Shown: in pieces, positions 1,259-63,664 of the stretch
How the letters are laid out: every line of letters starts with the position of its first letter
Position numbering within the stretch: position 1 is the first letter of the stretch
Assembly: GCA_017303795.1 (NCBI GenBank)
Contig: JAFLBR010000011.1
Span: 94,166-158,165 of the forward strand
Direction: 5' to 3'
From: Cytophagales bacterium
Lineage (GTDB): Bacteria; Bacteroidota; Bacteroidia; Cytophagales; Cyclobacteriaceae
DNA length: 64,000 nt
Notes under the pieces: generated by a model
What the model was told of the DNA's origin: nothing
Database searches by the model: none
Seen by the model: the letters and a program-made list of their open reading frames with translations, nothing else
Translations under genes and position numbers: made by a program

Positions 1259-1305
1259 ACGATTTCAAAAAGAAAATATTTATGCTGATTCTGAAATGGC
1301 CTTGA

Positions 1306-2306: not shown

Positions 2307-2312
2307 CGAAAA

Positions 2313-2693
2313 TTATTTACCAATAAGTTCCTGGTATTGATCTGCACTCAGTAAACCACTGGTTTCGGCTGCGTTGGAAATTTCAACTTTCACCATCCAG
2401 CCATCGCCATACGGATCGCTATTTACTTTTTCGGGACCGCTTTCCAGGGCTTTATTAAATTCAATCACCTTTCCGCTAAGCGGCATAAACAGGTCTGACA
2501 CGGTTTTAACCGCTTCCACGGTTCCAAAAACATCGTGCTGATTAAGGCTTTGGCCAACCGATGAAATGTCTACATAAACAATATCGCCCAACTCGCCCTG
2601 GGCAAAATCGGTAATGCCTACGGTAGCAATGTTGCCATCAATCTTAATCCATTCGTGGTCTTTGGTGTACTTCAGGTTTGCAGGAATGCTCAT
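2313..2693 (-). CDS. gcvH: Glycine cleavage system H protein
   Basis: YTKDHEW start; lipoyl-Lys motif VEAVKTVSD; SDPYGDGW. Confidence 0.97.
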
Positions 2694-2712
2694 GTGGTTC
2701 GATTTAGAAAAC

Positions 2713-2720
2713 CAAAATTA
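2713..2720 (-). promoter_or_regulatory. -7 promoter element (TAATTTTG) for gcvH-lipA
   Basis: Exact TAnnTTTG 19 nt upstream of gcvH ATG. Confidence 0.55.
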
Positions 2721-2726
2721 AGACAA

Positions 2727-2758
2727 TTGTCAGTTGTCAATTACTCAATTGTCAATTA
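2727..2758. repeat. Short heptamer-type array between sprA and gcvH
   Basis: TTGTCAG TTGTCAA TTACTCAA TTGTCAA. Confidence 0.65.
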
Positions 2759-2759
2759 T

Positions 2760-5700: not shown

Positions 5701-8700
5701 TCATCAAAGTCGGTACCCAATCGTAAAAAAGCAACCAACTCATTATCATCAAGAGATTTGGTAAGGTTGGTGCTATGCGCACTGATAAACATTTTAATGC
5801 GCCCGTAGTTGAAGAAGTCCATCGACACGTTTTTGTAAATAGCCCGCGCATCGCCATCGGGCAAATCGGTTACGCACATTTGTACCGACTGTTCATTTAA
5901 CCTGCGCTGTACAGCCGAAGTATTATCGCGGTCGCGCCTTAGTGGCTCGATGTAACCGGGCTTAATTTCATTCGGGCTACCATTCTCTTCAATGTTTACT
6001 ACCGACACCGAAAAATTATCCAGATTAGGTTCAATAGGTTCACCAAAGCGCGATTCTTCCAGGTTCTCGGTGTATCTTCTCCAGCGGTTACCCACCGCTC
6101 TGAATTTAGCCATGCGCAACACAACCGGTTTATCAAATTCAGTAAGAATCATGCGTGCATACCGAATGGATTTAAAACCATCAATACCACCCACCACGCC
6201 ATCAAACTGCCTTACGGGAATGCGGAACAAATACCACGTTGCATCCGGATTATCGGCCGAGGTAACAGCATCTACAATGTACTTGTTACCTACCTGAAGT
6301 TTGCTGGGCGTTAACTCAATGTTGTAGCTGTAATATTCTTCAAGATCGCTTAATGTATTGTCTTGATTTAAGTCTTCATTATCGGGTATGGTAGTGCCAG
6401 AGATAGCAAAAGCTTCGTTGCCAGTAAGGACAGGCGTGTTGCCTTCCTGATTATTGAAGTTTTTGTAACGTTCCAGAATTTTAGCATCACGGTCATCAAG
6501 ATCGTTACCCAAAAAGTAGTTAAAATCATCGGCTGATGGATCGCGTACTATTGTTTCTTTTGCTTCAGGAGTTAAAACAAGGCTCTTGTTTATTTGATCC
6601 AGAAACTCCCCATCTCGCCCAAGTTTAACCCGTTCATTTATGTTCCCCATTCCATCTAAACCCACATCCTGATTTGGCCGACCAGAAGCATCATTATCAA
6701 ACGCATTGTTGATGTATTGCTTATTGGTAACATAACCCCATGGGTTTTCAGTTACATTAATAGACGAGAGTTCGCCATTGGCGGGTAATCCATTTTCAAA
6801 AGCGTGTTTGCCATCACGGATTACATCTTCTGAAATACTCCCTAAATGAAAAATAAGTTTACCACCACTGGTGTTCGATGCGGGCGGGTTGATACCATCA
6901 TTAATAAATCCTCGTGGGTTGTTGATGAATGGATTCAACAACCAGAATTCAATGTATTCGATGTTAGCCTTATCAAAGTCAACTTCGGTGCGAATGGCAG
7001 TGGTAATACCAGCCCAATTGTCTTTTGGAGAGGGCAACATTCCGGTTGAGGTTAGATTATGATTGTAATTATAAGGCCCCCGTTCTGCCGGATAATAGGC
7101 CACATCAAAAATCTGCTCAAAAAAGTTACCGATATAATTATCGAAGAATGGGAAAATTTCCTGTGGCGATACAGAGCGCACGTAATGATTAGCCAAATCA
7201 TTTTCTGAAATGTTAGATGGTTTGAATCGCCCTCCGGTTCTGTAAAATAAATTATCAACCTGGTACCACGCTAACTTAGCTCTTTTATAGCCAGTCCTAA
7301 GGTCATTTGGTAAGCCAAGGGCATCATCAAAATCGCGTGGCACTGAAGCCAGTTTCCACGCCTGTGGACTAAGTAAACTGTAAGGGGTAGCGGTGTTTTC
7401 AAAGTCATCGATAAACGAAGTGCCATCGCCATCTACAATGTTAGATGTACCCGGTAGCAATTGCGCAAACTCTGCATTAAGTGTTACAGTAGATTGTTCT
7501 TTGGTTTGAAGGAAAGGCAGCGCGTCTACCATCTTGGTTAAGAAGCGCGATTCTTTGCGCATATTAAAATCCAATCCGTATTGAATGTTGCGTGCTGGTT
7601 CAGTACCAATCAGGTTGCGCGATACCAATGGTCGCTCGTTGTAGTACAGGAAAGTAGAACCAATGTTTATGTCGTCATTCAGCTTGTAATCCATGCGTGT
7701 GCCCAGCAACGATCGCGTTTGAAAAGCAAATGGATCTTGTTGTTCGTAGTTAATGTCAATGTCCTTACCCGAAGTAAGAATACCTTCGTTCAGAATGGTA
7801 ACTTTTCCAAACGTATAATCAACCGTATAATCCAGACCTTCCTGTAAAGGCATACCACCGGCATATACTTTTACTGAGCCGGGCGAAATGTTAAAACCCT
7901 GAATGATAATTTCTTTTCCTGACCCTGCCTTGAACGAACCCGTTAAGTAAAATTTGTTTTTAGTTGTTACCAGTTCGGCTTCAGCTTTTGTGGTGCGGTA
8001 TAACGTATCGTACACGTACTTACGCGTTAGCTGATCGCGCAACGCGAGGTTACTTTCTTTGGTAAACAGATCGCGCAAAGCCTTGTTAAAAGGCTCCAGG
8101 TATGGAAATACAATGGTTCCGGTTTCGGAGTTGATGGTTATCTTTTCTACATAGTCGAAGTTACCATCGGGTTGCGGGTCGTTATACGGATTGAGTCGAT
8201 CTAACCCAAACACGCGTATCAATTGTTGCGTGCGCGCGAAGTCGCCCTCTTGTAACTGCGGGTTATCAATACCGGTGCGGTCATCGCGGTAGATTACGCG
8301 CAACTGAAACCCATCGCGGGTAAGGCCACTTACATTCAGGTTGTAAATGTTTTTCATCATCAGATCCCACGTAGGTAGAATTCTACCTTGCTGATCTTTG
8401 ATGGCAATTTTGCGCGGCCGTAATAATTTCAGGTAAGCCACCTCATCTTCAGGTTTGTTACCATAGTCCTCAGAGAGTTCGCCTACTTTATACGCTCGAC
8501 CGTTATACGTGTACTCAAACGCTACGGCAAGGGCCTCATCGTTTTGAAGTTTGCGTTGCAAGGTTAAGTAACCTAGCTCTTTATGGAAGGTGTATTCTGT
8601 TGAGGCAAGCTTACGGGCAGAAGTAATTTTTTCGAAGTCGGTACCGTTTACTAAACCCAAACCTTCTAATGCCTGATTAATCCCATCGGATCCTGCGGAG

Positions 8701-9914
8701 ATTCCGCCCAATAGCGTAAACAAATTATTGACATTGTTGGAAGTGGGTGACGCTGGATTTGCAGTTGAGGTGATTGCATTGTTATAAATTTTTCCTGACT
8801 CGCCCATATCCATTAAGCCCACTACGTTGCGCAGGGTTTGGGTGTCGTTTTGCCGGTTTAAAAGATATACTTCTACGCGCGTAATGTTTACGCCCGAGGT
8901 AATCTGCGGAAGCGTGCTTAACCAGTTTTCAAAATTATCGCGGAAGAACTGGCCTAAGAAGAAGTGTCGGTTTTCATCGTAGTTAGACCCTACAATTTCA
9001 AATGGCCGACCTTGCGAGGCGCCATTCGTGCTGCCATTTACTTTTATGCTGGATTGTTTACCGCGCTGCGTAGTGGCTAAGGTGGTTACAAACAGTTTAC
9101 CAAACTGCATCTGCGCTTTTATACCAAACAGGTTTTGCGAGCCGGTGATCAAACTGTTGTTAAGTGGAAGACTTACGTTACCAATCTCTAACTTTTTAAG
9201 AATGTCTTCTTTAAAGCCGGTGTACTCCACCTTCATATTGTTTTGAAAATCGAAGGAGTTATTGTTATCGAAGTTGGTAGTAACGGCCAGCTTTTCGCCT
9301 ACCTTACCTTGCACACTCAGGTTTATTTGCTGATCGAACTCAAACCCACCGTTGCGCTGCTGGCGGATGGGAATAGAAGGGTTTTCTAACTTTTGAAACT
9401 GTGCCCCAAAGTCAAGATTCACAAATCCCCTTGGAATTAACTCTACATAGCTGCCGCCAAAAATGCGATCGAGTACGGGGCTAACATAAATTTTGGGAAT
9501 TAACCCGCGGCTGCTCACGGCACTTTCGCCATCTAATGCTTTACTGCGCGTTTGCCAATAATCGCGTTTAATAAGTTTATACTGCTCTGCATTAAATTCA
9601 TCGAACGAGATGGACGAGGGCGGGCGGTAATTAAGCGTACCCATCTTCTCGAAAATGGTGTAGTTGCGGCCCGTGTCAATCTGCAAATCGAACCCCAGAT
9701 TTTTAGAGTCTTGCAAAAACAGCGGTGAAAAACTTCGGTAGTTCGAAAACGGGTCGCCATAGCGATCGCGCAAGCGAAAAGTTGGCCTGAAGGGGTTGGT
9801 AATTCTAAACCTGGAGGTATCGGTGCGCACAGTATCCTGCTGCCCCATTGCCAATGGGGAGAGGCCAATAGTCAGGCCCAGGAGGAGCAGGATCTTCCGG
9901 TATCTTACAGTCAA
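2760..9914 (-). CDS. sprA: Type IX secretion system outer-membrane translocon SprA (Sov)
   Basis: 2384 aa, signal peptide, SprA-type segments (FDFQNNMKVEY, YDENRHFFL, IEYIEFW); conserved ruvA-sprA-gcvH order. Confidence 0.95.
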   Translation of the reverse strand: MTVRYRKILLLLGLTIGLSPLAMGQQDTVRTDTSRFRITNPFRPTFRLRDRYGDPFSNYRSFSPLFLQDSKNLGFDLQIDTGRNYTIFEKMGTLNYRPPSSISFDEFNAEQYKLIKRDYWQTRSKALDGESAVSSRGLIPKIYVSPVLDRIFGGSYVELIPRGFVNLDFGAQFQKLENPSIPIRQQRNGGFEFDQQINLSVQGKVGEKLAVTTNFDNNNSFDFQNNMKVEYTGFKEDILKKLEIGNVSLPLNNSLITGSQNLFGIKAQMQFGKLFVTTLATTQRGKQSSIKVNGSTNGASQGRPFEIVGSNYDENRHFFLGQFFRDNFENWLSTLPQITSGVNITRVEVYLLNRQNDTQTLRNVVGLMDMGESGKIYNNAITSTANPASPTSNNVNNLFTLLGGISAGSDGINQALEGLGLVNGTDFEKITSARKLASTEYTFHKELGYLTLQRKLQNDEALAVAFEYTYNGRAYKVGELSEDYGNKPEDEVAYLKLLRPRKIAIKDQQGRILPTWDLMMKNIYNLNVSGLTRDGFQLRVIYRDDRTGIDNPQLQEGDFARTQQLIRVFGLDRLNPYNDPQPDGNFDYVEKITINSETGTIVFPYLEPFNKALRDLFTKESNLALRDQLTRKYVYDTLYRTTKAEAELVTTKNKFYLTGSFKAGSGKEIIIQGFNISPGSVKVYAGGMPLQEGLDYTVDYTFGKVTILNEGILTSGKDIDINYEQQDPFAFQTRSLLGTRMDYKLNDDINIGSTFLYYNERPLVSRNLIGTEPARNIQYGLDFNMRKESRFLTKMVDALPFLQTKEQSTVTLNAEFAQLLPGTSNIVDGDGTSFIDDFENTATPYSLLSPQAWKLASVPRDFDDALGLPNDLRTGYKRAKLAWYQVDNLFYRTGGRFKPSNISENDLANHYVRSVSPQEIFPFFDNYIGNFFEQIFDVAYYPAERGPYNYNHNLTSTGMLPSPKDNWAGITTAIRTEVDFDKANIEYIEFWLLNPFINNPRGFINDGINPPASNTSGGKLIFHLGSISEDVIRDGKHAFENGLPANGELSSINVTENPWGYVTNKQYINNAFDNDASGRPNQDVGLDGMGNINERVKLGRDGEFLDQINKSLVLTPEAKETIVRDPSADDFNYFLGNDLDDRDAKILERYKNFNNQEGNTPVLTGNEAFAISGTTIPDNEDLNQDNTLSDLEEYYSYNIELTPSKLQVGNKYIVDAVTSADNPDATWYLFRIPVRQFDGVVGGIDGFKSIRYARMILTEFDKPVVLRMAKFRAVGNRWRRYTENLEESRFGEPIEPNLDNFSVSVVNIEENGSPNEIKPGYIEPLRRDRDNTSAVQRRLNEQSVQMCVTDLPDGDARAIYKNVSMDFFNYGRIKMFISAHSTNLTKSLDDNELVAFLRLGTDFDEHYYEIELPLKITPAGVRSLEEVWPDQNQIDLDLNELYALKARRDREGFNLAILYPQAGPEPAGKHGIRILGRPDLSQVRTMMIGIRNPRTDDAKTFDVCLWANEMRLTDFDRTAGWAANVMLNTKLADLGTVSGSLRHISFGYGGVQSKISERARGETTRYDVSANLNIDKLLPQWTGLKIPMFISYESNIINPKYDPANPDLRIQAALQSFNSDAEREEYLKIIQDRSIRRSLNFANVRKIKTNKEAVAHIYDVENFSFTYAFTEATQTNFNHKENTVRTYKGAITWQYTPKFKGFEPFKDSKGLKSPFLQLIKDFNFNPMPTKIFIQGDLDRSFTKKVYRNANNDAESSIPNFEKFFVFNRKYNVRWDITKTLGLDYSSRVNAIIDEPDGDLDNRDSIQVVIDNLKKLGRMKNFDQNITANYTLPLEKLPLTNWLGAEYRYNVGYNWQAGPLEKDESLRLGNIIQNTQDQALSGRIDFVKLYNKIGFLKNVNTPPRPVPTRPGTPTTKPVQPDTVKRPPDLKALKGMLRLIMAVRNVTGTYSITQGTILPGFTPDPYMFGLDKGWGAPGWGFVLGQQEAGFQEKAGANGWLTRSQRLTTPFTQNQMKDLTLSAAVEPSTELRIKLDVKKNSTTAFQEIFRLDSAGTAYESLSPSRIGSYKISINTINTAFRNNESLNSTVFKQFEENIAIMQTRFTAITGNSYESRSQDVLIPAFLAAYTGKSAESTNLSPFPRLPIPSWRVDYTGLGKMGNLKDIFQSITINHAYTSSYSVVNYSNSLEYNENQVGLTNPIEDYNNGLFASKTNANGELIPVYVISQVMISEQFSPLIGINVRTKKKLNLKFEYKTKRDLALNISNSQITELNSKDWSVDIGYTKNNMRLPFKSEGRVITLKNDITFQMNMSVTNNRTIQRKIAEVNTVTNGNINFQLRPNVSYLVNQKLRVQAYMERSVNEPLVTNSFRRSTTRAGFKILFNLAQ

Positions 9915-9921
9915 TGGTGGT

Positions 9922-10509
9922 TCAGGCGTTTTTAAGTGCTTGCTTTACGAGCTCTTCTAAACTTATTGTGTTTCCTGACTTCTTCAGGATTGCATCAACA
10001 CTCTTTTCAGCCGCAGCTTTGGCAATGCCAAGCGTAATCAAGGCAGTTAACGCCTCGTGGCGGATGGTATTGTGTATCAGCCCCGGTTTTCCGGTATCGT
10101 CAAAGCCATCTTTGCGCAGTTTATCTTTCAACTCTAACACCAGCCGCTGGGCCGTTTTTCCTCCAATTCCCTTTACGGATTGCAGGGTGGCAACATCTTC
10201 GCGCACAATGGCCGCTTTTAAATCGGTTGGCGATAAATAGGATAAAACCACTAAGGCCGTGTTGGGGCCTACTCCGTTAACCGAGATCAGGTGCTGAAAC
10301 ATTTGTTTTTCGGATTCGCTGGCAAAGCCAAACAAAATGTGGGCGTCTTCGCGCACATGCATGTACGTAAGCAGCGTAAGGTCTTCGCGATCTTTGATTT
10401 CGGAGAATGTATTTAGCGAAATGCTCACCTGGTAGCCAATGCCGTTTACCTCCAACAGCACAAATGTGGGCTCCTTATGTGCGAGCTTTCCTTTTAAGTA
10501 GGCAATCAT
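9922..10509 (-). CDS. ruvA: Holliday junction branch migration protein RuvA
   Basis: MIAYLKG start, GIGYQV, HVREDA, HhH motifs SVNGVGP and VKGIGGKTAQRL. Confidence 0.97.
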   Translation of the reverse strand: MIAYLKGKLAHKEPTFVLLEVNGIGYQVSISLNTFSEIKDREDLTLLTYMHVREDAHILFGFASESEKQMFQHLISVNGVGPNTALVVLSYLSPTDLKAAIVREDVATLQSVKGIGGKTAQRLVLELKDKLRKDGFDDTGKPGLIHNTIRHEALTALITLGIAKAAAEKSVDAILKKSGNTISLEELVKQALKNA

Positions 10510-10576
10510 GGAAAAGCTTAAAAAATAAAATGCAGTTTACGAGGATTTGGGCAGGGATGCAAATGGTAGAAATCGG

Positions 10577-42851: not shown

Positions 42852-43991
42852 TTAATTGCGACCTCTTGAGCCTCCTGATGAAGAACTTCCACCACCAGAT
42901 GAAGAGCCACTGCTTCGGCTTCCACCACTGTTGCCACTGGAGAATCCGCTTGAGCTACGCGAAGAACTTCCACTGCTGCTATTGTCAAGCCAGGTAGAGC
43001 GATTTGAACTTCTGCTGCTGTTATTGAAAGTAGAACCAGTGCTTCTGCTACCAGAAGTTGAGTTGTTCCATACCGGGCGGGTTGAAGTGTTTTCAGGATT
43101 ATTTCTCCAGCCGCGCTGATAATAATTTTCGTTTGCAGAAGCAGTGCGAGCTGTGCTTCTGGAATTGCTTCCACCACGGGTATCATTTTGAATTGCTGCA
43201 GACTGGCGACTGCCGCCACCGGTGTTAACATTGTTATTCATATCGCTTGAGCGTGATGATCTTTTGCCATACACAACCCGGTTAGCACCATCGCCACCAC
43301 CTACAATAATTACAGTAGGTCTGTTCCACGAATTCCAACCCCAGTTGTTCCAGCCCATGCCCATATTGTTTCCCCAACCCCAGTTGTTGAATGAATTGTA
43401 TCCGTAAGGATCCCACGCCATTGAATTCCAACCCATATTATTCCAGCCCATGTTATTCCATGGTGAATAACCCCATGAGTTACCCCAGCCCATACCCATA
43501 CCCAACGACATGTTGAAGCCTGGTCTGTAAAAGCCGTTGTTAAATCCATTATTAAATCCGTAAGGGTCCATTCCCCATGCATTACCATAAGGATTATAAC
43601 CACCAACCATGTAGGGATTCATTCCACCCATCATGTAGGGATTATTCATGCCGTAATAATTCCAGTTTGCACGGTTGTTATAAAGATTCTGATTAACTGC
43701 AGTAGGCACATAGTCCGCATAGAAGTAACTAACCTGCTGTTGCGGAGCAGCACCATTAACCGATTGCGAGATGTACTCCGGATTAACATTGCGTGCAGAG
43801 TAACTATCCGTAGGGTTAATAGGAGTTTTAATTTCCGATTGACGGGATGATAATTCTGATAATGGTTTTGAAGCTGCAATTTTTGCACGATCGCTCGCTC
43901 TGAAATACATGTCATCAAATTCTGCCTGTGCGCTCACTCCAACTACTGCTGTTACCATTAGCAGGCCCATAAAAATGATTCTTGATTTCAT
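42852..43991 (-). CDS. Exported low-complexity (N/G/W/M-rich, S/G/R tail) hypothetical protein
   Basis: Signal peptide MKSRII...; EFDDMYF motif; GWNN repeats; co-oriented upstream of FadL gene. Confidence 0.75.
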   Translation of the reverse strand: MKSRIIFMGLLMVTAVVGVSAQAEFDDMYFRASDRAKIAASKPLSELSSRQSEIKTPINPTDSYSARNVNPEYISQSVNGAAPQQQVSYFYADYVPTAVNQNLYNNRANWNYYGMNNPYMMGGMNPYMVGGYNPYGNAWGMDPYGFNNGFNNGFYRPGFNMSLGMGMGWGNSWGYSPWNNMGWNNMGWNSMAWDPYGYNSFNNWGWGNNMGMGWNNWGWNSWNRPTVIIVGGGDGANRVVYGKRSSRSSDMNNNVNTGGGSRQSAAIQNDTRGGSNSRSTARTASANENYYQRGWRNNPENTSTRPVWNNSTSGSRSTGSTFNNSSRSSNRSTWLDNSSSGSSSRSSSGFSSGNSGGSRSSGSSSGGGSSSSGGSRGRN

Positions 43992-52389: not shown

Positions 52390-54084
52390 ATGATAAAGAC
52401 CTCAGACCTGTTCTCGTACAAAATTGATAAGAAGTATAGCAAACCCGCGGCTTATTTTTCGATGGAGTTTGGTATTGATCAGGCTTTAAAAATTTACAGT
52501 GGCGGCCTTGGTTTTCTGGCGGGTTCGCACATGCGCAGTGCTTACGAGCTTAAACAAAATCTGATTGGCATCGGAATTTTGTGGAAGTATGGCTATTACG
52601 ATCAGGAAAGAAATCAGGACGGAACTTTAAAAGCAGGGTATGTAGAAAAGAACTATTCTTTTCTTACCGATACAGGCATTGTGTTTCCGATTACCATTCA
52701 CAACCACGAAGTGCATGTAAAAGCCTGGTTGCTGAAGCCTGAGGTATTTCATACAGCCCCCATGTTTTTGTTAAGTACCGATTTGCCTGAGAACGACCAC
52801 CTGGCACAAACCATCAGCTATCGGTTGTACGATAGCCACGAGTCGGCCCGCATTGCGCAGTCCATATTATTAGGTAGTGGCGGTGCAAAGCTGTTGGATA
52901 TTTTAGAACGCGAAACAGAGGTGTATCACATGAATGAAGGCCATGCGCTACCGCTGTGCTTTTATTTATTGAATAAATACAATAACGATCTGGAAGAAGT
53001 GCGCAAGCGGGTAGTGTTTACTACGCACACGCCTGAAAAAGCTGGCAATGAAGAACACGGAATTTCATATTTAGATGTGATGAGTTTTTTCCACGGTGTG
53101 CCGAAAGAAACGGTACTGGAATTAGCCGCACCCGATACCAATAATTTAAGTTATACACTGGCTGCGTTGCGCATGTCGCGCATCTCAAATGGAGTTTCGT
53201 CTTTGCACGGGGCGGTGTCGCGTAAAATGTGGACAGGCTTTGATGGCATTTGCGAGATTACTTCCATTACCAATGCGCAGAACAAAACCTTTTGGATGGA
53301 TGCTGCATTGGAAGAACATCATAAGCAAGGAAACGATAAAGGATTAACGCTTCGTAAAAAAGAAATGAAGCGCGAACTCTTTCGCGTGGTGGCAAACCAA
53401 ACCGGTAAAATTTTTGACGAGAACGTAATTACGATTGTATGGGCCAGACGTTTTGCGGCTTATAAACGCGCTAACTTATTGCTTCGCGACTTCGAGCGTT
53501 TTCTTAAGTTGGTAAACAATGCTGAATTTCCAGTGCAAGTGATCTGGGCTGGTAAACCTTACCCGGAAGATTTTGGTGCGATTGGAATCTTTAATGATAT
53601 CTATTGGAAAACAAAAGACTTACCTAATTGCGCTATTCTTACCGGTTACGAAATGGAGCTTTCCGGTTTGCTGAAGCGCGGTTCTGATTTGTGGCTCAAC
53701 ACGCCAAAAATGTTCCGCGAAGCCTCGGGTACTTCGGGCATGACAGCCGCTATGAATGGAAGTGTAAATCTTTCTATTCCCGATGGTTGGATTCCGGAGT
53801 TTTCGAAGCACGGAAAAAATTGCTTTATTATTTCGCCAGCCGAAGCGGATGACGCTGCGGAGCAGGATCGCATCGAAAATGATAACCTGCTTACGTTATT
53901 AGAAAATGAAATTGTGCCGATGTATTACAAAAAGCCGAAACAATGGGTGGCTGTTGTAAAACAAAGTATGGAAGATGTTGTGCCCGCGTTTGACAGCAAC
54001 CGCATGGCGCGTGAGTACTACGAGAAGTTGTATGCTACAACTGAAACGAAGGCTAAGAAAGCAAAAGAGCTGGAGGTGATTTAA
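52390..54084 (+). CDS. glgP: Alpha-glucan phosphorylase family protein (short form), PLP-Lys replaced by Thr
   Basis: Likely ATG 52390; YFSMEFG, YSGGLGFLAG, HMNEGH, FTTHTP, WARRFAAYKRA, EASGTSGMTAAMNG. Confidence 0.88.
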   Translation: MIKTSDLFSYKIDKKYSKPAAYFSMEFGIDQALKIYSGGLGFLAGSHMRSAYELKQNLIGIGILWKYGYYDQERNQDGTLKAGYVEKNYSFLTDTGIVFPITIHNHEVHVKAWLLKPEVFHTAPMFLLSTDLPENDHLAQTISYRLYDSHESARIAQSILLGSGGAKLLDILERETEVYHMNEGHALPLCFYLLNKYNNDLEEVRKRVVFTTHTPEKAGNEEHGISYLDVMSFFHGVPKETVLELAAPDTNNLSYTLAALRMSRISNGVSSLHGAVSRKMWTGFDGICEITSITNAQNKTFWMDAALEEHHKQGNDKGLTLRKKEMKRELFRVVANQTGKIFDENVITIVWARRFAAYKRANLLLRDFERFLKLVNNAEFPVQVIWAGKPYPEDFGAIGIFNDIYWKTKDLPNCAILTGYEMELSGLLKRGSDLWLNTPKMFREASGTSGMTAAMNGSVNLSIPDGWIPEFSKHGKNCFIISPAEADDAAEQDRIENDNLLTLLENEIVPMYYKKPKQWVAVVKQSMEDVVPAFDSNRMAREYYEKLYATTETKAKKAKELEVI

Positions 54085-54980
54085 TGTCTGGGAGTTACGA
54101 TTGTAAATACTCTTGAAATCGTAAACCCAAACCGAATATCACCTTTAAAAAAGTTACCGGTTGTTTCGGAAATGAAGGAACGCTCAGTCATGCCTGTTGA
54201 ATTAGTTACATTCAATTGAAAAACGTGGCCACCGGTTTCAATATCAAATCCTAACGCAAGCGAGTTAGTGGTGCCTGAAATCTGATGCCCTGGAATCTGG
54301 TAGTAGTATTCAGCATTTAAGCTTACCCGCTTATTAAGTTTCATTCTTCCACCGGCACCTACTGAAAAAACATCGTTTGGATCGTTAATGCCAGTTGCCA
54401 GGTTGTAGTGAATAAGTGTAGGCATAAGTTGAAGCGAAAGACTTTCGCTAAACTTTCTTCCAATTAAGAGCTGCGCAGAATAGTACATTTTGGAGGTCAG
54501 GAAATTTTCGCGATCGGGCGTATCAAATTTTAATGACTTATACATAATACCAGCGGCTGCACTTACAGTTATGGGCATGCCACCACTAACCTGGCTTAGT
54601 AGTTTATACTTGGTAAACCCATCAAATTGTTTTTGATAGGTACTTCTACCCACACCAATCATCCAGCGTTTTGTAAGTCCATAATCAAAGCCCATGCGCA
54701 TGGAGGCCTGATCCAATCCAAACAGTTCATAAGCACCATCGCTTAAAAAACCAAACCGGTGCGAGATTCTGAAATCAAGAACTCCTTTCGCCACATTCTC
54801 AACGGAGTGACCATTGATCAAACGCGTGGTTTTGAAAGTGGCTGTTACGTAATCTGGTTTACTTTGCTTTTCTGTTTCCTTATCAAGCATGTCCATTAAA
54901 TCCTGACCATAGCTTGTGGCATGTAGCGATGAAACAAAAAGCAGAATGCCAATGAGTGATAACTTATTATTTAGGCGCAT
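54081..54980 (-). CDS. DUF5777 family outer-membrane beta-barrel
   Basis: Likely start MRLNN (54980); ATFKTTRLINGHS, FRISHRFG, LFGLD, ETGGHVFQL, FGFTISRVF. Confidence 0.85.
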   Translation of the reverse strand: MRLNNKLSLIGILLFVSSLHATSYGQDLMDMLDKETEKQSKPDYVTATFKTTRLINGHSVENVAKGVLDFRISHRFGFLSDGAYELFGLDQASMRMGFDYGLTKRWMIGVGRSTYQKQFDGFTKYKLLSQVSGGMPITVSAAAGIMYKSLKFDTPDRENFLTSKMYYSAQLLIGRKFSESLSLQLMPTLIHYNLATGINDPNDVFSVGAGGRMKLNKRVSLNAEYYYQIPGHQISGTTNSLALGFDIETGGHVFQLNVTNSTGMTERSFISETTGNFFKGDIRFGFTISRVFTIVTPRH

Positions 54981-55515
54981 AAATACAATTGACATTAATC
55001 TCAACGGTTTTGGAAATTTTTTCAGCAACAAGTGCCGGTATTTCAATTTTGTGATCGGATAGTTTGATCACAAACTTCGAGCTTGCTTCAAGTTTGTCAG
55101 GCGAAACGATGATTGTACCCGTTGCTGTCTGGTATTGTTTTACGCCATGTATCGTGAGATCACCCCCAACTTCAATTTCGTAGGTTCCACTAACTTTAAA
55201 GTTCACCTTGCTTAGGTTTAATATTTTTCCGTTGAAGGTGGCTTTGGGGTATTTTGTTGACTCCAGATAGTTTTCATTAAAATGTTCTTCCATGAGTGCT
55301 TTATCGAAGCGAAAACTTTTAACCAGCACGGCAAAAACCAATTCACCTTTTTCTATATCTAGCAGACTCGTTACCTCATTGTTGGTTGCTTCTATGTTTT
55401 CTATTGGTGTTTTCGAAAAGAAAGAGATCTTTCCATTTCTGGTCATGAACACCGGCTGGGCAAAAGAACTCACGCTAATGGCGTAGAGCAATACACTAAC
55501 TAAAACCTGTTTCAT
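54967..55515 (-). CDS. YceI family (polyisoprenoid-binding) exported protein
   Basis: Signal peptide; ISFFSKTP.E.I.A, F.F.KALMEEHFNENY.ES..YPKATF, G.LTIHG. Confidence 0.88.
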   Translation of the reverse strand: MKQVLVSVLLYAISVSSFAQPVFMTRNGKISFFSKTPIENIEATNNEVTSLLDIEKGELVFAVLVKSFRFDKALMEEHFNENYLESTKYPKATFNGKILNLSKVNFKVSGTYEIEVGGDLTIHGVKQYQTATGTIIVSPDKLEASSKFVIKLSDHKIEIPALVAEKISKTVEINVNCIYAPK

Positions 55516-55531
55516 ATCTAAATTTAATTTG

Positions 55532-55894
55532 TTAATTGTTTAAAGCGCCAGCATCAATCCAGGCTTGAATTTTTTGAATATCGCAAGCCGACATTTTACC
55601 GGAATTTTTAGGCATAGCTGAATAACCAGAACTAAAATTGATGCTGCCCATCAGGCTACCATCGTTTACATATTTCATTACGGCCGTATGAGTGTTAAGT
55701 GCAATTCCGGCTGATGGACTGTTACCACCGTGGCAATTGTTACATCGGTTGTTAAGCAAAGGCAGCACATTGCCACTAAATGTACTTGTAGTTAATGGTG
55801 TACAGTTTGCTGATTCCGGATAAAGCGTGGCTTCGTTATCGTAATAACATCCGGTTAGCAAGAGTAAGGCAAACAAAGAGATCTTATTCATCAT
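55532..55894 (-). CDS. Monohaem c-type cytochrome lipoprotein
   Basis: Lipobox LTGC; CNNCH; distal AMPK; ends WIDAGALNN. Confidence 0.85.
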   Translation of the reverse strand: MMNKISLFALLLLTGCYYDNEATLYPESANCTPLTTSTFSGNVLPLLNNRCNNCHGGNSPSAGIALNTHTAVMKYVNDGSLMGSINFSSGYSAMPKNSGKMSACDIQKIQAWIDAGALNN

Positions 55895-55904
55895 ACCAAA
55901 GAAG

Positions 55905-56621
55905 TTAATTGTTAAGTGCCCCGGCATTTATCCAGGATTTGATCTGATTAATCTCGCACTCAGAAAGTTTAGTGCCTTGTGGCATGGGCGAAAAGCCAGT
56001 AGCATGCGTAATGCTTCCCACTAATTTTCCATTTGTAACCTGCGCTTTAATGGAGGTATAATCGGCCAGGTTTATATTGCCACCTAACGAGCCGGGTTTA
56101 TGGCAACCCACACATTGGTTGTTTATGATGGGCTTAACAGTTAATGCGAACGTAAATTGATCTGGATTACATGCGCAATTACAGTTTACGGTGTTTTTAG
56201 CGCCTTGGTTAATCCACGCAGCAATGGAATCTTTTTGTGCTTGTGTAAGTGGAGCATCGGGTGGCATTCTATCTTCACCTGATTCAAAAAGTACTTTATA
56301 CAATTTACTTTTACTGGCATTGCCTGGAGAAATTCCTTTTCTGACAATATTGTTGTAATTGTTTAGCGTGTAACCTTCTTTATGCGAGGTAGCATCATGA
56401 CACTTACTTCGGGCGCAAGATGAAATGAAGATGGGGAGTACACTACTTTCAAAACACACGTTTCCATCTGTTACACACCCCGGAGTGTTTGGCTCGCCCT
56501 CGTTTAACGTGGTTGGATCAATAAAAGGATCATGAACGCAACCGTTAAGTAAAACCAGAATCAAGACCAATAAACCAATGCTAATTCTAAAGCCATAGAC
56601 TAGTTTGGATTTCGCTTTCAT
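55905..56621 (-). CDS. Dihaem c-type cytochrome lipoprotein (planctomycete-type domain + second domain)
   Basis: Lipobox LNGC; CARSKCH (CX4CH) with RMPP; CVGCH with PMPQ; ends WINAGALNN. Confidence 0.85.
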   Translation of the reverse strand: MKAKSKLVYGFRISIGLLVLILVLLNGCVHDPFIDPTTLNEGEPNTPGCVTDGNVCFESSVLPIFISSCARSKCHDATSHKEGYTLNNYNNIVRKGISPGNASKSKLYKVLFESGEDRMPPDAPLTQAQKDSIAAWINQGAKNTVNCNCACNPDQFTFALTVKPIINNQCVGCHKPGSLGGNINLADYTSIKAQVTNGKLVGSITHATGFSPMPQGTKLSECEINQIKSWINAGALNN

Positions 56622-56632
56622 ACTGTTAAGAA

Positions 56633-57040
56633 TCATTTTTTGATTTGAGCAACACTTGTATTTGTTATAATTACATCTGAGAGAAATCCCTTGCAGATTC
56701 CTTTCAGCATTACAAATTCATTTTTCTTAAGATTGGCTTTTGAATCTTGCATGGTGCATTGGACACCAAACCCATCACCTTCTGCCGCAAGCATTACAAC
56801 CGGAATATTTTCCTGATTGTGTGTGATGTTTACAATCTTGCCAGACACCACAACTGTTTTGTCGAGGTAAAGTAGGTTGGCAGAATCTTCGTTAAGCTGG
56901 AATTGCCTGAGAAGTTCGGCTGCGGAAATTGCTATTCCCTGCTCGTCCTCAGGATTGCGGTGTGGTTTGTTATAGGTTATATAAACCGAGAAACTAATAG
57001 CCAGCAGAACAAACAAGGCAATACTACTTCTAGCTTTCAT
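56633..57040 (-). CDS. Membrane-anchored OB-fold protein (tRNA_anti-like)
   Basis: N-terminal TM; YNKPHR, ISA.EL...F..NE..AN..YLDK.V.VSGKI, V.LKG.C.G. Confidence 0.78.
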   Translation of the reverse strand: MKARSSIALFVLLAISFSVYITYNKPHRNPEDEQGIAISAAELLRQFQLNEDSANLLYLDKTVVVSGKIVNITHNQENIPVVMLAAEGDGFGVQCTMQDSKANLKKNEFVMLKGICKGFLSDVIITNTSVAQIKK

Positions 57041-57090
57041 TTTGAACCGATCAAAACCTTTTGGCTTTGATTTTCAAAGAATGAAAATGA

Positions 57091-57130
57091 TTCTGAATTG
57101 ATCTTGAATTAATTCTGAATGGATTCTCAA
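57091..57130 (-). promoter_or_regulatory. Four 11-bp-phased direct repeats (putative OmpR/PhoB-family binding site)
   Basis: Plus strand TTCTGAA (57091), TCTTGAA (57102), TTCTGAA (57113), TTCTCAA (57124). Confidence 0.7.
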
Positions 57131-58398
57131 GAATTAGCGGAAAAGCAAACCTGAAAATGATGCCTTGAATTGGAGTAATAATAGTTTATTGAAAAACTTT
57201 CGACTTCACAGATTTTTTTCAGAATGGCCAACCCAAGACCACTTCCCTGCGAGCTTCTTGATTCCTGATTAAACCGATTGAAGATTTTTTCGGGCGACTT
57301 AAGTGGCGAGCCATTATTAAGTACGGTTAAAGTTTCTTTTTCGATTTTAATCAACACATCGGTTTTAAAAGTAGCGTACCGTAGGGCATTTGAAATCAGG
57401 TTGCTAATTAAAATTTCGAAGAGTATGGGGTTTGCTTTGATAACTAAATCTTTAGCCACATCTACAGTAATATTTATTTCGCGTGTAAATGCAAGTTGTT
57501 GATAGTCCTCAATGGTTCGATTCAGCACAGCAAGCACTGAAACTTCGTCTGTAGCTATAAATTGCCGGTTTTCTATTTTCGATAGCAAGAGAAGATTTTT
57601 ATTCAATCTTGCAATCCGATCGGTTGTATCCAGCAGGTTGCTGATTAATTCTGCTTGTTCTTTAGTGAGCGGTGTGGTTTGAATCAGCAGTTCCAGTTTC
57701 GATCGGAAAATGGCAATTGGAGTTTGTAATTCATGCGAAGCATTTTCGGTAAATTCTTTTTGATTGAGATAGGCATCTCTACTTTTGTTCACCAATAAAA
57801 CAACTGCTTTACTCAGATCGCGAAATTCGGTAGTGGAAGAATGTGGAAGGCTAATAAAAGTATCTTCATCGATTTTATATTGCTTAAGCTTGTCTAGAAT
57901 TTTATAGAATGGATCCCAAACTTCATGCGATAGCTTTCGATTAATCAGGACAAAGCCGGTAAGCATGAGAATGAGTAAAACAACCTGAATAGCTACAATT
58001 GCAGTAACCAACCGCGTGTTACCGACAATCGACTCGCGAATAATTAGTTCGTAGTTTTTATTTTGAATTTGAATGCCGGTGCGAAGCGCCCTGAAGGGAA
58101 TGTTTATACCTTCCAGACTATCGTATTGAGTATAAGTGTAAACTGAATCAGAAACCGGCCATGCTTTAGCTTCCGATAATTTAAATTCTTCGTTAATTAA
58201 TTGAAAGAGCTGAATCTCCTTTTCTGTTTCCAACTGTTTTACAATATGATTGAAGTTAGCTTTGTGATGAAAAAGCTCTTCCTCCATTTCGTGAATAAAA
58301 AGTTGGCGGATAGCGATGTAAAAGAGCGGGGTGCTAACAACTAATAGGAGCGTGGAATAGAGGATATAATTTTTTACCGTCCGCTTGAGCAGCTTCAT
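57127..58398 (-). CDS. Sensor histidine kinase
   Basis: Two TM helices; H-box NASHELQTP; N-box NLISNALRY; G-box GSGLGLAI. Confidence 0.95.
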   Translation of the reverse strand: MKLLKRTVKNYILYSTLLLVVSTPLFYIAIRQLFIHEMEEELFHHKANFNHIVKQLETEKEIQLFQLINEEFKLSEAKAWPVSDSVYTYTQYDSLEGINIPFRALRTGIQIQNKNYELIIRESIVGNTRLVTAIVAIQVVLLILMLTGFVLINRKLSHEVWDPFYKILDKLKQYKIDEDTFISLPHSSTTEFRDLSKAVVLLVNKSRDAYLNQKEFTENASHELQTPIAIFRSKLELLIQTTPLTKEQAELISNLLDTTDRIARLNKNLLLLSKIENRQFIATDEVSVLAVLNRTIEDYQQLAFTREINITVDVAKDLVIKANPILFEILISNLISNALRYATFKTDVLIKIEKETLTVLNNGSPLKSPEKIFNRFNQESRSSQGSGLGLAILKKICEVESFSINYYYSNSRHHFQVCFSANS

Positions 58399-59069
58399 AC
58401 TTCAAATTTATAACCTAATCCGTAAATAGTTTTGATATAGTCTGCACATCCGGCCTCGGTTAATTTTTTCTTTAGGTTTTTCATGTGTGCATAAATGAAG
58501 TCGAAATTATCAAATACTTCAGCTACATCGCCAGACAGATGTTCGGCTATAGCATTTTTTGAAACCACCCGGTTTTTGTTCGAAACCAAAAATAACAGCA
58601 GGTCATACTCTTTTCGGGTAAGATCAACCAGCGTTTCGTTTACCGATACAACTTTACCCAATAAGTCGATGATTAACTCATGGAGCGTAAGGAGATTATT
58701 ACCACCAAATCGTTTGCGCCTGATTACGGCTGAAATGCGGGCTCCAAGTTCTGACAAATGAAAGGGTTTTACCAGATAATCATCGGCACCAAGGTTTAAG
58801 CCTTTAATCTTATCGTCAAGCGAATTTCGGGCAGAGATAATGATTACGCCATCTGCCTTCCCATCTATTTTCAGGGCCTCCAAAACAGTTAACCCGTTTC
58901 CATCGGGCAGGTTAATATCAAGTAGAATACAGTCATAATCGTGAAGCACAATTTTTTCAGTTGCCTGTTGGGCGGAATAGGCCACTTCGCACACGTAGCT
59001 TTCCTGCCGCAGATATTGAACTATGCTTTTTGCAAGCTCACGTTCGTCCTCAACAATTAGTACTTTCAT
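58395..59069 (-). CDS. OmpR/PhoB family response regulator
   Basis: VEDE, LLDINLPDG, GADDYLVKPF, LTRKEYDLL, IKTIYGLGY. Confidence 0.96.
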   Translation of the reverse strand: MKVLIVEDERELAKSIVQYLRQESYVCEVAYSAQQATEKIVLHDYDCILLDINLPDGNGLTVLEALKIDGKADGVIIISARNSLDDKIKGLNLGADDYLVKPFHLSELGARISAVIRRKRFGGNNLLTLHELIIDLLGKVVSVNETLVDLTRKEYDLLLFLVSNKNRVVSKNAIAEHLSGDVAEVFDNFDFIYAHMKNLKKKLTEAGCADYIKTIYGLGYKFEV

Positions 59070-59108: not shown

Positions 59109-61073
59109 TCATTTTTTTAGCAAACCTTTTTTAAATGCTAAACTAGAATTTTGATACCAACTTATTGCTTCTTTGGTCACTCGTAGTGTATTTAAGGAGT
59201 CTGTTAAGCTCTGAGTAAAATCACCTTTCTGGTTTAACAAATGTAGCTCTACTTTTTGTTGTGGCTTAAGAACAGTCAGACTATCTCCTCTTAAATAGCC
59301 CAAGGTCTGGTAGGTGCTGATGAAGGCCCGCGCTTCATCGGGATTGATCCTGAAAATATCATAACCATAGAACTTGCTTTGGTATGAAAAATTTAAGAGG
59401 CCCAGTATTGTGGGGGCAACATCAATCTGACTCATTAATGCATTGTTAACCTGTGGGCGGACGTTACCCGGCCCCCAAATCATCATAGGTATCTTGTATT
59501 TGTTTGGAGGTAAATCAACCTTGCCTGCGCTGGACGCACAATGATCGGCAACAATGATAAACAGTGTGTTTTTGTACCATGGTTTAAGGCTTGCCTCTCG
59601 TAAAAACTTGCCAATAGCATAGTCTGTATATTTAACAGCTCCATCGCGATTTGTGTGAGAGGGGATGTCGATTCTTCCTTCCGGGTAGGTATAGGGCCTA
59701 TGATTGGAGGTTGTCATAATATGGGCAAAAATGAGTTGATTTTCGTTTGCAGATTTATCAATTTCCTTGATGCTCAACTCAAACAGATTTTCATCGGCAA
59801 CCCCCCAGATATTTTCATAATCAATCTCGTTATCTGGTATGGCTGTCCGGTCAATTACTTCGTAACCATTTTTTTCAAAGAAGTAATTCATATTATCAAA
59901 ATATCCGTAACCACCATATATGTATTTACAGTGATAACCTTTTTCCCGAAAGACACTGCCAAGTGAAAACAAATTTTCATTGTTTGGTCTACGAACAATC
60001 GACTGACCGGGTGTTGGGGGGATTGATAGCGTTAAGGCCTCCAGGCCACGTACGGTTCGGGTTCCGGTTGCAAACAGGTTTGTAAACACTGTGCTGTGTG
60101 CAGCTAGCGAGTCTAAGTGAGGTGTAATTCTCTTTTTGTTGCCAAATAGTCCTAGAAATTCAGCGCTAAGACTTTCAACACTTATAAGTACTACATTCCA
60201 TTTATTTTCATGGTTCTTATTGATTACCTGATGCAGTGGGAATTTTTTTTGAAATTCATTAGTGGATGAGTATTCAAATTTTGATTGCAAAATTGCAGTG
60301 GCCTCGTTGCTATCAATGTTTGCGTAGAATTCTTCATAGTTTAATTCGTTGTTCCGGTAGGCAGCAAAAAGATCATAGATGCCATTGCCAGAAAGTTCAT
60401 TCACATACCGATTGGTGGAGAACCGATGCGTGTTTACATCTACAGTAAAAAACACCAAAACAACAATCCCTGTCCAGAGAGCGGTTAAGGCACCGCGTTG
60501 CCAAAAATCTGGTTCTGAGTATGAAACTATTTTTTTTAAAAAACGATGAACTTGCCAGGTCAATAGGAGAACTATAGTAAGTTGGCCAGGTACGATCCAT
60601 TCAATTGGGTATGATTGTTTGATATTACCAATCACCTCGGTGGTGTAAATTAGATAATCAACAGCAATAAAGTTGAAGCGTGAATTAAACTCGCTCCAGA
60701 AAAAATATTCAGCCCCTGCTGAAAATACGATGATGAAAGCTAACAAGAAGTATAAGAAAAGTTGAGTATAGTAAAGCCCCTTGCTTCGTACGAAGCTGTC
60801 CGGAGTTAACCACAGGAGTACTATAATTGGAAGAAAAAAATAGCTTGCGTTAGCTAAATCAAAAAACAGTCCGACCAATAGTATAAGCAACACATTGGAA
60901 ATAGATCCATCCAGTTGACTCCATGAACTAATCATTAAAACCAGTCGGACAATAAATGATATAGCAATGAGGGTGATTAGGAGAGCAAGAACTAACCGAT
61001 AACGTTTGGTTTGCATTAGCCCCAATAGCAGTCCTGGGCTTATTGCTTTTTTTGTTTGATTCAGACCTTTCAT
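59109..61073 (-). CDS. LTA-synthase-family / alkaline phosphatase-superfamily membrane transferase
   Basis: About 5 TM helices then VESLS, ATGTRTVRG (catalytic Thr), TTSNHRPY, VADH; start may be 61073 or 61016. Confidence 0.88.
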   Translation of the reverse strand: MKGLNQTKKAISPGLLLGLMQTKRYRLVLALLITLIAISFIVRLVLMISSWSQLDGSISNVLLILLVGLFFDLANASYFFLPIIVLLWLTPDSFVRSKGLYYTQLFLYFLLAFIIVFSAGAEYFFWSEFNSRFNFIAVDYLIYTTEVIGNIKQSYPIEWIVPGQLTIVLLLTWQVHRFLKKIVSYSEPDFWQRGALTALWTGIVVLVFFTVDVNTHRFSTNRYVNELSGNGIYDLFAAYRNNELNYEEFYANIDSNEATAILQSKFEYSSTNEFQKKFPLHQVINKNHENKWNVVLISVESLSAEFLGLFGNKKRITPHLDSLAAHSTVFTNLFATGTRTVRGLEALTLSIPPTPGQSIVRRPNNENLFSLGSVFREKGYHCKYIYGGYGYFDNMNYFFEKNGYEVIDRTAIPDNEIDYENIWGVADENLFELSIKEIDKSANENQLIFAHIMTTSNHRPYTYPEGRIDIPSHTNRDGAVKYTDYAIGKFLREASLKPWYKNTLFIIVADHCASSAGKVDLPPNKYKIPMMIWGPGNVRPQVNNALMSQIDVAPTILGLLNFSYQSKFYGYDIFRINPDEARAFISTYQTLGYLRGDSLTVLKPQQKVELHLLNQKGDFTQSLTDSLNTLRVTKEAISWYQNSSLAFKKGLLKK

Positions 61074-61110
61074 ACTTGCGAGCAGAATATCACGCAAGGA
61101 AAAGTCAAAT

Positions 61111-62945: not shown

Positions 62946-63620
62946 TCACTTCAAACTCTCCAAATCCCGAATTAAAATTTTCTTCCTGTCGAAGTTGATC
63001 AGGTTTTTTTCTTTCAATTCGTTTAGAATGGTGGTAACCGTTTGGCGTGAGGTTCCTGTAAGGGCTGCAATGTCTTTGTGTGTAAGGCGCGTGGGGATCA
63101 TGGTTTCGTAACCAACTTTCTTTCCTTTCCACGCTGCAGTGTCTTTTAAAAATTCAATCACACGGGTGCGGGCATCTTTAAATACCAGCAACTCAAGTTT
63201 GCGCTCTAATTTCATCAGGCGTAAGCCAATCAACTTAAGTAGTTTAAAGCTAAGCTCTTTGTTCTCCTTCATCAGGTTTTTTAATTCTTCCAGACTTAAC
63301 GGGCAAATAGTGGTGTTCTCCATCGCTTGCGCGAAATCTTTACGTTGGTCTTCACCTGCCAATGCTAACTCTCCAAAAATTTCTCCCGTGGTAAGTATGG
63401 AAGTAATTACTTCAGTTCCGGTTTCCTGATAATGACCAATCCGCACCCGGCCATTCACAATCATGTAAATGTGTGTGGCTTGTTCGCTGGGAAAATAAAT
63501 GTATTGATCTTTTTTATACGTGTTATACGTATGCTTTTCGGCCATTGTCTTTACCTTGTGGGGGCAAAGAATCTGGTACAGGTTTACGCTTTCAAAATAC
63601 CAAAGTGCCGAAGTATTCAT
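62946..63620 (-). CDS. Crp/Fnr family transcriptional regulator
   Basis: cNMP domain GEIFGELAL...R; HTH LTHKDIAALTGTSRQTVT; N-terminal LCPHK. Confidence 0.93.
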   Translation of the reverse strand: MNTSALWYFESVNLYQILCPHKVKTMAEKHTYNTYKKDQYIYFPSEQATHIYMIVNGRVRIGHYQETGTEVITSILTTGEIFGELALAGEDQRKDFAQAMENTTICPLSLEELKNLMKENKELSFKLLKLIGLRLMKLERKLELLVFKDARTRVIEFLKDTAAWKGKKVGYETMIPTRLTHKDIAALTGTSRQTVTTILNELKEKNLINFDRKKILIRDLESLK

Positions 63621-63664
63621 ATTCAAACTGAGTGTTAATTACGGAAATTTAAAAGAGAAAGTTA

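Follow-up and report, generated by a model that had tools for sequence, protein, structure and literature searches.

In the genome of a Cytophagales bacterium of activated sludge and wastewater, the genes of a two-component system are followed on the same strand by an operon for an OB-fold protein, two c-type cytochromes, a YceI protein and a DUF5777 beta-barrel. The gap between the kinase gene and the OB-fold gene is 86 bp, and a regular array of four heptamers is found in this region. OmpR/PhoB-family regulators bind tandem direct repeats with units of 6-7 bp and a period of 10-11 bp. This raises the question whether the two groups of genes are merely neighbours or whether the adjacent response regulator controls the operon directly through the repeats, as had been claimed in an earlier note on this DNA. 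In the following, the window denotes the whole stretch of 64,000 nucleotides (64 kb) that was analysed; its features are compiled in Table 1, and related loci from other genomes and metagenomes are cited by their numbers (L001 and so on).

All genes around the array are encoded on the minus strand. The regulator has the canonical acidic pocket (E7/D8) as well as D51 and K101, and the last 4 bp of its gene, at the stop codon, are also the first 4 bp of the kinase gene. The gene order of the cytochrome operon is the same in L001-3, L009, L081, L083, L088-91 and in dozens of further loci. For the sulfatase-family protein, the open reading frame extends from 59109 to 61097 and the first in-frame ATG is at 61073. 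Its only Pfam domain is Sulfatase, and its best matches are to LtaS/phosphoglycerol transferase models, far below their cut-offs. The surroundings in the window also code for a DM13 protein, a second YceI protein and a Crp-family regulator (62946-63626), and close relatives additionally code for SCO1/SenC, MOSC and a further cytochrome c.

Table 1. Features of the heptamer array, its putative promoters and the adjacent genes (positions in the window).
Feature	Position	Strand	Remark
Heptamer 1 (distal), TTGAGAA	57124..57130	-	one mismatch to TTCAGAA; contains the kinase stop TGA (57129-57127)
Heptamer 2, TTCAGAA (consensus)	57113..57119	-	pair of heptamers 1 and 2: 22.2 bits
Heptamer 3, TTCAAGA	57102..57108	-	two mismatches; identical in L081/L083
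Heptamer 4 (promoter-proximal), TTCAGAA	57091..57097	-	proximal pair (heptamers 3 and 4): PWM score 20.0 bits
Putative -7-like box, ATTCTTTG	57075..57082	-	8 nt after heptamer 4
Predicted stem-loop, TCAAAGCC-AAAA-GGTTTTGA	57051..57070	-	predicted mRNA 5' end; overlaps the palindrome CTTTGA-AAA-TCAAAG
Target operon (whole)	54081..57040	-	five genes
OB-fold tRNA_anti-like protein	56633-57040	-	first operon gene; Pfam
Two-domain cytochrome c	55905-56636	-	Pfam
Second cytochrome c	55532-55927	-	Pfam
YceI	54967-55515	-	Pfam
DUF5777 beta-barrel	54081-55046	-	Pfam
Sensor histidine kinase	57127..58398	-	HisKA and HATPase_c; NCBIfam 'PorY family'
OmpR/PhoB-family response regulator	58395..59069	-	Response_reg 95.5 bits; Trans_reg_C (winged-helix) 63.1 bits
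LtaS/phosphoglycerol-transferase-like sulfatase-family membrane protein	59109..61073	-	heads the regulator operon
Putative -7-like box, TTCCTTGC	61094..61101	-	8 nt past the autoregulatory box; geometry as at the cytochrome operon
Putative autoregulatory box, TTCAGAC-tttc-TTCAGAA	61110..61127	-	strongest PWM site of the window, 28.4 bits

On the plus strand, the heptamers read TTCTGAA (57091), TCTTGAA (57102), TTCTGAA (57113) and TTCTCAA (57124). Inspection of the sequence showed that the coordinates and the strict 11-bp phase given in the earlier note are exact. The note had quoted the heptamers by their plus strand letters, and these are correct, but as the genes are on the minus strand the functional reading is TTGAGAA-tcca-TTCAGAA-ttaa-TTCAAGA-tcaa-TTCAGAA (57130 to 57091), with two of the four heptamers being imperfect. 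The array had been placed between the kinase stop and the OB-fold start, which holds for most of it and fails for the distal heptamer, which overlaps the kinase stop. Past the array, the coding strand continues with tcattttc-ATTCTTTG, and a further 34 nt lead to the ATG at 57040.

The array stands out from the remainder of the window. Tandem Repeats Finder (TRF) reports it as an array at 57088-57127 with a period of 11, 3.6 copies and a score of 52. Its identity at a lag of 11 (24 of 33 nt) is the top value of the 64 kb and exceeds the maxima of all 200 window sequences simulated with a first-order Markov model (mean maximum 19.5, sd 1.0), while the remaining lags give 10-17 identities in the array region. 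When TTCAGAA-N4-TTCAGAA is searched with up to two mismatches, the window has 8 matches where 0.89 are expected, a number reached in none of 100 shuffles.

The heptamer pair as read from the window was then scanned in 80 related loci with a response regulator and a histidine kinase (RR-HK loci), which were taken from reference genomes, comprise 882 kb and have kinase identities of 32-73%. With at most one mismatch, 38 matches were found, all 38 on the gene strand and none on the opposite strand, and control scans with the reversed or complemented motif gave 0-1 matches. The spacer is equally well defined, a length of 4 yielding the 38 matches and each other length from 0 to 14 only 0-2. A site with at least 12 bits is located within 150 bp before the regulator ATG in 41 of 75 loci, mostly at -39 to -55, where about 0.2 such loci are expected from the background rate. 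Orthologous boxes are thus found upstream of the regulator gene in L081, L083, L001-3 and many others. In loci that have no site before the regulator gene, the site is found before the upstream gene of the operon, which codes for the sulfatase-family protein in L009 and L017 and for an HD-domain protein in L019 and L065. The motif accompanies the RR-HK pair throughout the Cytophagales and Chitinophagales, independently of which genes are next to it.

When the position weight matrix (PWM) that resulted from the related loci was applied to the window, only two strong places were found, both of them flanking the two-component genes. One is the site at 61127-61110, which is also among the 8 motif matches mentioned above and precedes the sulfatase gene, the first of the regulator operon, by about 40 nt; the other is the array, which scores 20-22 bits in three overlapping registers. 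The next best score is 13.3 bits. The weaker motif matches in the window (3773, 11669, 45776, 56691, 57206 and others) do not exceed this value and were treated as chance occurrences. Those that were inspected are in coding sequence or are not followed by a downstream box.

Several properties of the box are informative about its recognition. At up to two mismatches, 25 matches on the minus strand were obtained, and these were considered as divergent sites but rejected, since they are mirror images of perfect plus-strand sites that arise because ATTCnGAAT is nearly palindromic. Despite this near-palindromy, the central base of the heptamer is A on the sense strand in every match, so that recognition must be directional, as would be expected of head-to-tail dimers of winged-helix regulators. 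The flanks of the 41 anchored sites contain about 0 bits of information, and the box is therefore a phylogenetic footprint and not a residue of overall similarity. In divergent regulator clades, the box has drifted, to TTCAAAA/TTCCAAA in Dyadobacter and to TnCAACA in another group, and the recognition helix of the regulator varies alongside (FDNFDFIYAH vs FDNHDFVYAH vs FDNYDFVYSH). Dyadobacter, Chitinophaga, Terrimonas and Puia, which include cultured carriers, have a form of the box each. As far as can be judged by comparison of the loci, such a pattern is classically taken in comparative genomics to mark an autoregulated response regulator together with its operator.

When the 41 sites were aligned on their last heptamer, a second conserved block, nnnnTTT(G/A), became evident exactly 8 nt further downstream, with peaks of 1.3, 1.6 and 0.9 bits. 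Its distance to the start codon is highly variable, from 4-5 nt (L042, L064) up to about 190 nt (L089). As the distance to the heptamer is fixed and that to the ATG is not, the block is tied to transcription rather than to translation. In Flavobacterium psychrophilum, the sigma-A -7 box is TAnnTTTG and is located at -12 to -5 (PMC9723704). By its sequence, the conserved block is a match to this Bacteroidetes sigma-A -7 box, with the TA missing in most of the Cytophagales promoters examined. The conserved CTTTG was also considered as a -33 element. This was rejected because the ATG is only 31-33 nt past the last heptamer in L005 and L009, and it is also excluded by the start codons 4-5 nt past TTTG in L042 and L064, so that only the -7 box fits. 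In the anchored promoters, no consistent TTG was found at the -33 position, and the 18-bp box is predicted to span about -38 to -21 and to take the place of the -33 element.

For the cytochrome operon, the start of transcription is predicted at about 57068-57070, some 30 nt before the ATG. For the regulator operon, the equivalent geometry predicts a start at about 61087-61089, roughly 15 nt before the ATG. Public RNA data cover parts of the locus only by scattered Logan contigs from wastewater and plankton metatranscriptomes; coverage is patchy and contig ends do not cluster near the predicted start. One RNA contig covers the 3' end of the kinase gene together with the repeats, and this could be due to read-through or to DNA in the library. 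Between 56900 and 57300 there is no match to a sigma-70 promoter, a consensus that does not apply to Bacteroidetes. An intrinsic terminator between kinase and operon was not found in this range either, and part of the operon expression may thus stem from an upstream promoter.

The box is found in front of the OB-cytochrome-YceI-DUF5777 operon in 11 related lineages (L001, L002, L003, L009, L021, L081, L083, L088-L091). With the window included, the proximal heptamer pair is retained in all 12 operon promoters of the clade. In L001-3, L009, L021, L081 and L083, the sequence around the proximal pair cannot be aligned, except for that of the closest relatives, L081 and L083. An independent sample was anchored on the operon and consisted of 80 metagenome loci with relatives of the two-domain cytochrome. 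The operon itself proved to be widespread in this sample, but the box occurs only in the clade with at least 62% cytochrome identity (L088-L091, 19-29 bits). It is absent from all 55 operon copies with up to 58% cytochrome identity (best score 2.9 bits), and no two-component system was found within up to about 4 kb upstream of these 55 distant copies. On this comparison, recruitment of the operon into the regulon is a clade-specific event.

Two loci separate the box from the kinase gene. In L090, a Rieske-protein gene and a gene for a 676-aa protein put 3 kb between kinase and operon, and the box is directly before the OB gene. In L091, no homologue of the regulator or the kinase was found in the 3 kb upstream of the operon, and the box is present 57 nt before the ATG. 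As the box stays with the operon in both cases, it belongs to the operon promoter and not to the kinase 3' end.

The same box with the same geometry at the regulator's own operon indicates that the system is autoregulated and that the cytochrome operon is a directly wired member of its regulon. A cognate regulator, direct repeats, autoregulation, conservation and a fixed promoter register, the characteristics of an OmpR/PhoB-type site, were all found. The earlier note had proposed that the adjacent regulator controls the operon via sites of pho-box geometry, and the orthologous motif, its orientation, its spacing and its link to the operon argue for this proposal on comparative grounds. We thus consider it likely that the heptamers are sites for the adjacent response regulator in the promoter of the cytochrome operon. 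Provided that the regulator binds there, binding probably activates transcription, which we hold with somewhat less confidence.

Under this reading, the kinase would phosphorylate the regulator, and dimers would then occupy TTCAGAA-N4-TTCAGAA. The four heptamers would suffice for two head-to-tail dimers and would constitute the upstream half of an activator-dependent promoter. The proximal pair (57108-57091), 8 bp from ATTCTTTG (57082-57075), would cover the usual location of the -33 element, and the regulator bound there would recruit sigma-A RNA polymerase in a PhoB-like manner, so that transcription would begin at the predicted start. The distal pair (57130-57113) would contribute cooperative occupancy. 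The same arrangement would drive the regulator's own operon, sulfatase-RR-HK, from the box at 61127-61110. Regulator binding, activation rather than repression, and the start sites are all deduced from DNA sequence.

Repression is the alternative that survives best, although we regard it as unlikely. In this case the regulator would bind to the heptamers but block RNA polymerase over -38 to -21, or stop, as a roadblock, polymerases that read through from the kinase gene, and the signal would relieve this block. The predicted site indeed overlaps the core promoter region, and a roadblock is conceivable as no terminator separates kinase and operon. However, more than 40 genomes show the identical geometry at the promoter of the regulator itself, and autoregulation of two-component systems from a site that replaces the -35/-33 element is typically positive, as for PhoB and PmrA. 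In addition, these promoters lack a consistent -33 TTG that a repressor could occlude.

It might also be that the repeats are bound by a different protein, either a paralogous regulator of the OmpR family or the nearby Crp/Fnr-type regulator (62946-63626), and that the adjacency of the two-component genes is incidental. A Crp-family gene is not only close by in the window but is found directly upstream of the regulator gene in L083, and TTGA/TCAA palindromes occur downstream of the box. A paralogous regulator with the same specificity could be encoded beyond the 64-kb window. Crp/Fnr dimers, however, bind a palindrome and not a directional direct repeat with a period of 11 bp. As described above, the motif tracks the RR-HK pair across Cytophagales and Chitinophagales regardless of the neighbours and co-varies with the recognition helix of the regulator. 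We therefore consider binding of another protein improbable, more so than repression.

The number of heptamers is variable, and most relatives have the proximal pair only. Four heptamers are found in the window, L081, L083 and L009, and three to four in L001. In L081 and L083, which are 93-97% identical to the window, there is no mismatch to TTCAGAA in the distal heptamer; the kinase ORF of these relatives is 6 codons longer, extending through two heptamers (7269-7290) and ending in …SSESIQN*. In the window, a sense-strand change from C to G (TCA to TGA) weakens the distal heptamer and at the same time removes 6 residues from the kinase. The allele with TTCAGAA and the longer kinase (57128 C>G on the plus strand) is found in a contig of a wastewater library that is labelled as RNA. 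The kinases of more distant relatives end upstream of the repeats, and encoding a tail can therefore not be the purpose of the repeats. A neutral origin of the array, as a tandem duplication or a by-product of encoding the C-terminal tail of the kinase and without any regulatory role, is very improbable: although two heptamers are inside the kinase ORF in the closest relatives, the region is AT-rich and TRF reports 22 other short arrays in the window, the lag-11 signal tops the window and exceeds 200 of 200 simulations, the heptamers persist as DNA where more distant kinases stop earlier, the box is retained before the operon where 3 kb separate operon and kinase or where a 3-kb search revealed no kinase, and the orientation, the spacing and the interval up to the TTTG box do not vary.

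The best-known site of this type is the pho box of E. coli, CTGTCAT-N4-CTGTCAT, at which PhoB takes the place of the upstream promoter element. Both systems have an OmpR/PhoB-type winged-helix regulator and 7-bp direct repeats with a 4-bp spacer (11-bp period), with one or two boxes in tandem, and in both the box stands in for the upstream promoter element, with a short and constant interval to the downstream one. They differ in that the sequence here is TTCAGAA and not CTGTCAT, that the promoter is of the Bacteroidetes -7/-33 type, and that pst or pho genes are not involved. Direct-repeat units of 11 nt have also been described for PhoP of Streptomyces (PMC2275107). Membership in a Pho regulon was rejected, as the regulator scores 149.2 bits with the Bacteroidetes PhoB model (cut-off 270) and 143.6 bits with TIGR02154 (cut-off 296.2).

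The gene order of the regulator operon resembles that of enterobacterial pmrCAB (eptA-basRS), which is autoregulated, has boxes with an 11-bp period and codes for a sulfatase-superfamily transferase, the OmpR-type regulator PmrA/BasR and a kinase. In both cases, the gene for a sulfatase-superfamily membrane transferase, the regulator gene and the kinase gene form one autoregulated operon with direct-repeat boxes of 11 bp. The BasR structures 4s04 and 8jo2 are the second-best solved relatives of the regulator. Here, however, the transferase is LtaS-like, its gene is missing in the closest relatives, and the box has a different sequence. A domain and model search found no EptA N-terminal domain in the sulfatase-family protein. 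Membership in the PmrAB system was therefore rejected, with a transferase that is not EptA-type and a score of 164.5 bits for the PmrA model (cut-off 330).

The sulfatase-family gene within the regulator operon is present in the window, L009, L017, L088 and L089, and it is absent from the closest relatives L081 and L083. In these two, the same box is directly before the regulator gene (L081, 5179-5329; L083, 5244-5329) with no sulfatase gene in between. Judged by this distribution, the gene has been gained or lost inside the regulator operon.

CpxR binds the direct repeat GTAAA-N5-GTAAA and has degP among its targets. There is a resemblance to the CpxR and BaeR systems insofar as, in relatives, the box precedes genes for an HtrA/DegP-type protease, for outer-membrane beta-barrels and for envelope enzymes just past the kinase gene; by contrast, the targets in the window are periplasmic electron-transfer proteins. 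Orthology to CpxR (114 bits) or BaeR (132 bits) was rejected, both scores being far under the cut-offs.

A different relationship is suggested by the kinase. With 413.2 bits (cut-off 350), the whole window kinase is covered by the NCBIfam model NF052314 ('PorY family sensor histidine kinase'), and this is the feature that it shares with the PorXY system. PorY of P. gingivalis is the kinase of the PorXY regulatory system for type IX secretion (PMC4800418, PMC10951265), and PorX has a PglZ/alkaline-phosphatase effector domain and is encoded at a locus separate from that of PorY (PMC10951265). In contrast, the partner of the window kinase is a classical DNA-binding OmpR-type regulator encoded by an overlapping gene, as in all related loci examined, and an OmpR-type regulator gene directly precedes the kinase gene in all 79 related loci that contain upstream sequence. 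No T9SS gene was found among the box-preceded genes of the window and the related loci. Membership in the PorXY system was rejected because of the OmpR-type partner and because the box-preceded genes code for cytochromes, YceI, DUF5777, DUF3570, HtrA, HD-domain and LtaS-like proteins. The 'PorY family' label probably over-reaches, or else P. gingivalis PorY is a derived orphan. The automatic 'PorY family' label on such kinases should thus not be equated with control of type IX secretion.

In relatives, the box is also found in front of other genes. It precedes a gene for a DUF3570 protein (L005, L008, L009), an HtrA/DegP-type protease directly after the kinase (L035, L058, L067), the HD-domain protein (L019, L065), the LtaS-like sulfatase-family protein (L068, L009, L017 and the window) and a 280-aa signal-peptide protein without a Pfam match (L004). 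DUF3570 proteins are extracytosolic redox proteins that are flavinylated by ApbE (PMC8238504). Depending on the lineage, the slot just past the kinase gene is occupied by a different gene that is presumably box-driven. Going by their annotation, these genes point jointly to periplasmic electron transfer and to maintenance of the envelope. The signal of the kinase may be extracytoplasmic redox or envelope stress.

More tentatively, TTCAGAA-N4-TTCAGAA could be the operator code of a Bacteroidota-wide system of a 'PorY-family' kinase and an OmpR-type regulator that governs an electron-transfer and envelope regulon and has an exchangeable target slot; we think of this as a possibility that is rather doubtful at present. 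If true, the regulon would comprise the cytochrome c/YceI/DUF5777 proteins, flavinylated DUF3570 proteins, Rieske proteins, HtrA and the LtaS-like transferase, and P. gingivalis PorY, now an orphan, would represent a derived form from which the OmpR-type partner has been lost.

In the literature on the heptamer, on DUF5777/YceI operons and on RprY/PorY binding sites, we found no earlier account of the box or of the regulation of the operon. The switch is very probably of an ordinary type, a predicted OmpR/PhoB tandem-repeat activator site, and is new for a widespread, unstudied system of the Bacteroidota. It does not change the understanding of how regulators of the OmpR/PhoB class work. It does provide a testable operator sequence, a promoter layout and an autoregulatory loop for a system that occurs in hundreds of Cytophagales and Chitinophagales genomes. 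It also links this system to a conserved, uncharacterised periplasmic module (OB-fold protein, two c-type cytochromes, YceI and the DUF5777 barrel), for which it is a first regulatory handle. With the box, the full regulon can be read off any complete genome of the group, which is the quickest path to guessing the signal.

The region between the putative -7-like box and the OB-fold gene has further symmetries. The segment 57041-57082 is rich in TTGA/TCAA symmetry, including TTTTGA-tcggt-TCAAAA just before the ATG, and a stem-loop is predicted at the mRNA 5' end. RNA folding of 126 nt gives a z-score of -2.77, and a G to A change in L083 turns a G·U pair of the stem into A-U. These symmetries might serve as a hairpin at the 5' terminus of the mRNA or as an operator to which a second regulator binds; the Crp-family gene at 62946-63626 has already been mentioned. 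Other clusters reported by TRF in the window, with units of 7, 14 and 21 bp (2195-2307), at 2724-2758, and with units of 15 and 24 bp (43425-43645), are unrelated to TTCAGAA.

Some rearrangements were noted in individual relatives. In L021, a relative of Chryseolinea, the operon is rearranged (7296-10512), with the order cyt-cyt-DUF5777-YceI followed by the two-domain cytochrome, and there are two boxes (7296 and 9646), one ahead of each transcription unit. In L090, the Rieske [2Fe-2S]-like gene between kinase and operon (1052-3899) is on the minus strand, and a minus-oriented box-like site is found at 1697, about 235 bp upstream of it. The 676-aa protein from this locus consists of about six tandem repeats of about 75 aa and has a C-terminal cytochrome-like domain with CSGSSCH.

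In the alignment of the two-domain cytochrome (55905-56636), an invariant CXXCH (CVGCH) and the motif C-A-(R/K)-S-(K/G)-C-H-D with CX4CH spacing are found, together with an invariant NCNC(x)C cysteine cluster between the domains. The N-terminal part also matches the model of the Leptospira lipoprotein LIC11213. In a relative with 97% identity, which was recovered from two separate metagenome samples (L081, 7360-7765; L082, 1930-2337), the OB-fold gene is apparently frameshifted. Only a C-terminal piece of 72 aa is called, there is no ORF of at least 100 aa from the conserved ATG, and apart from this gene the operon is intact.
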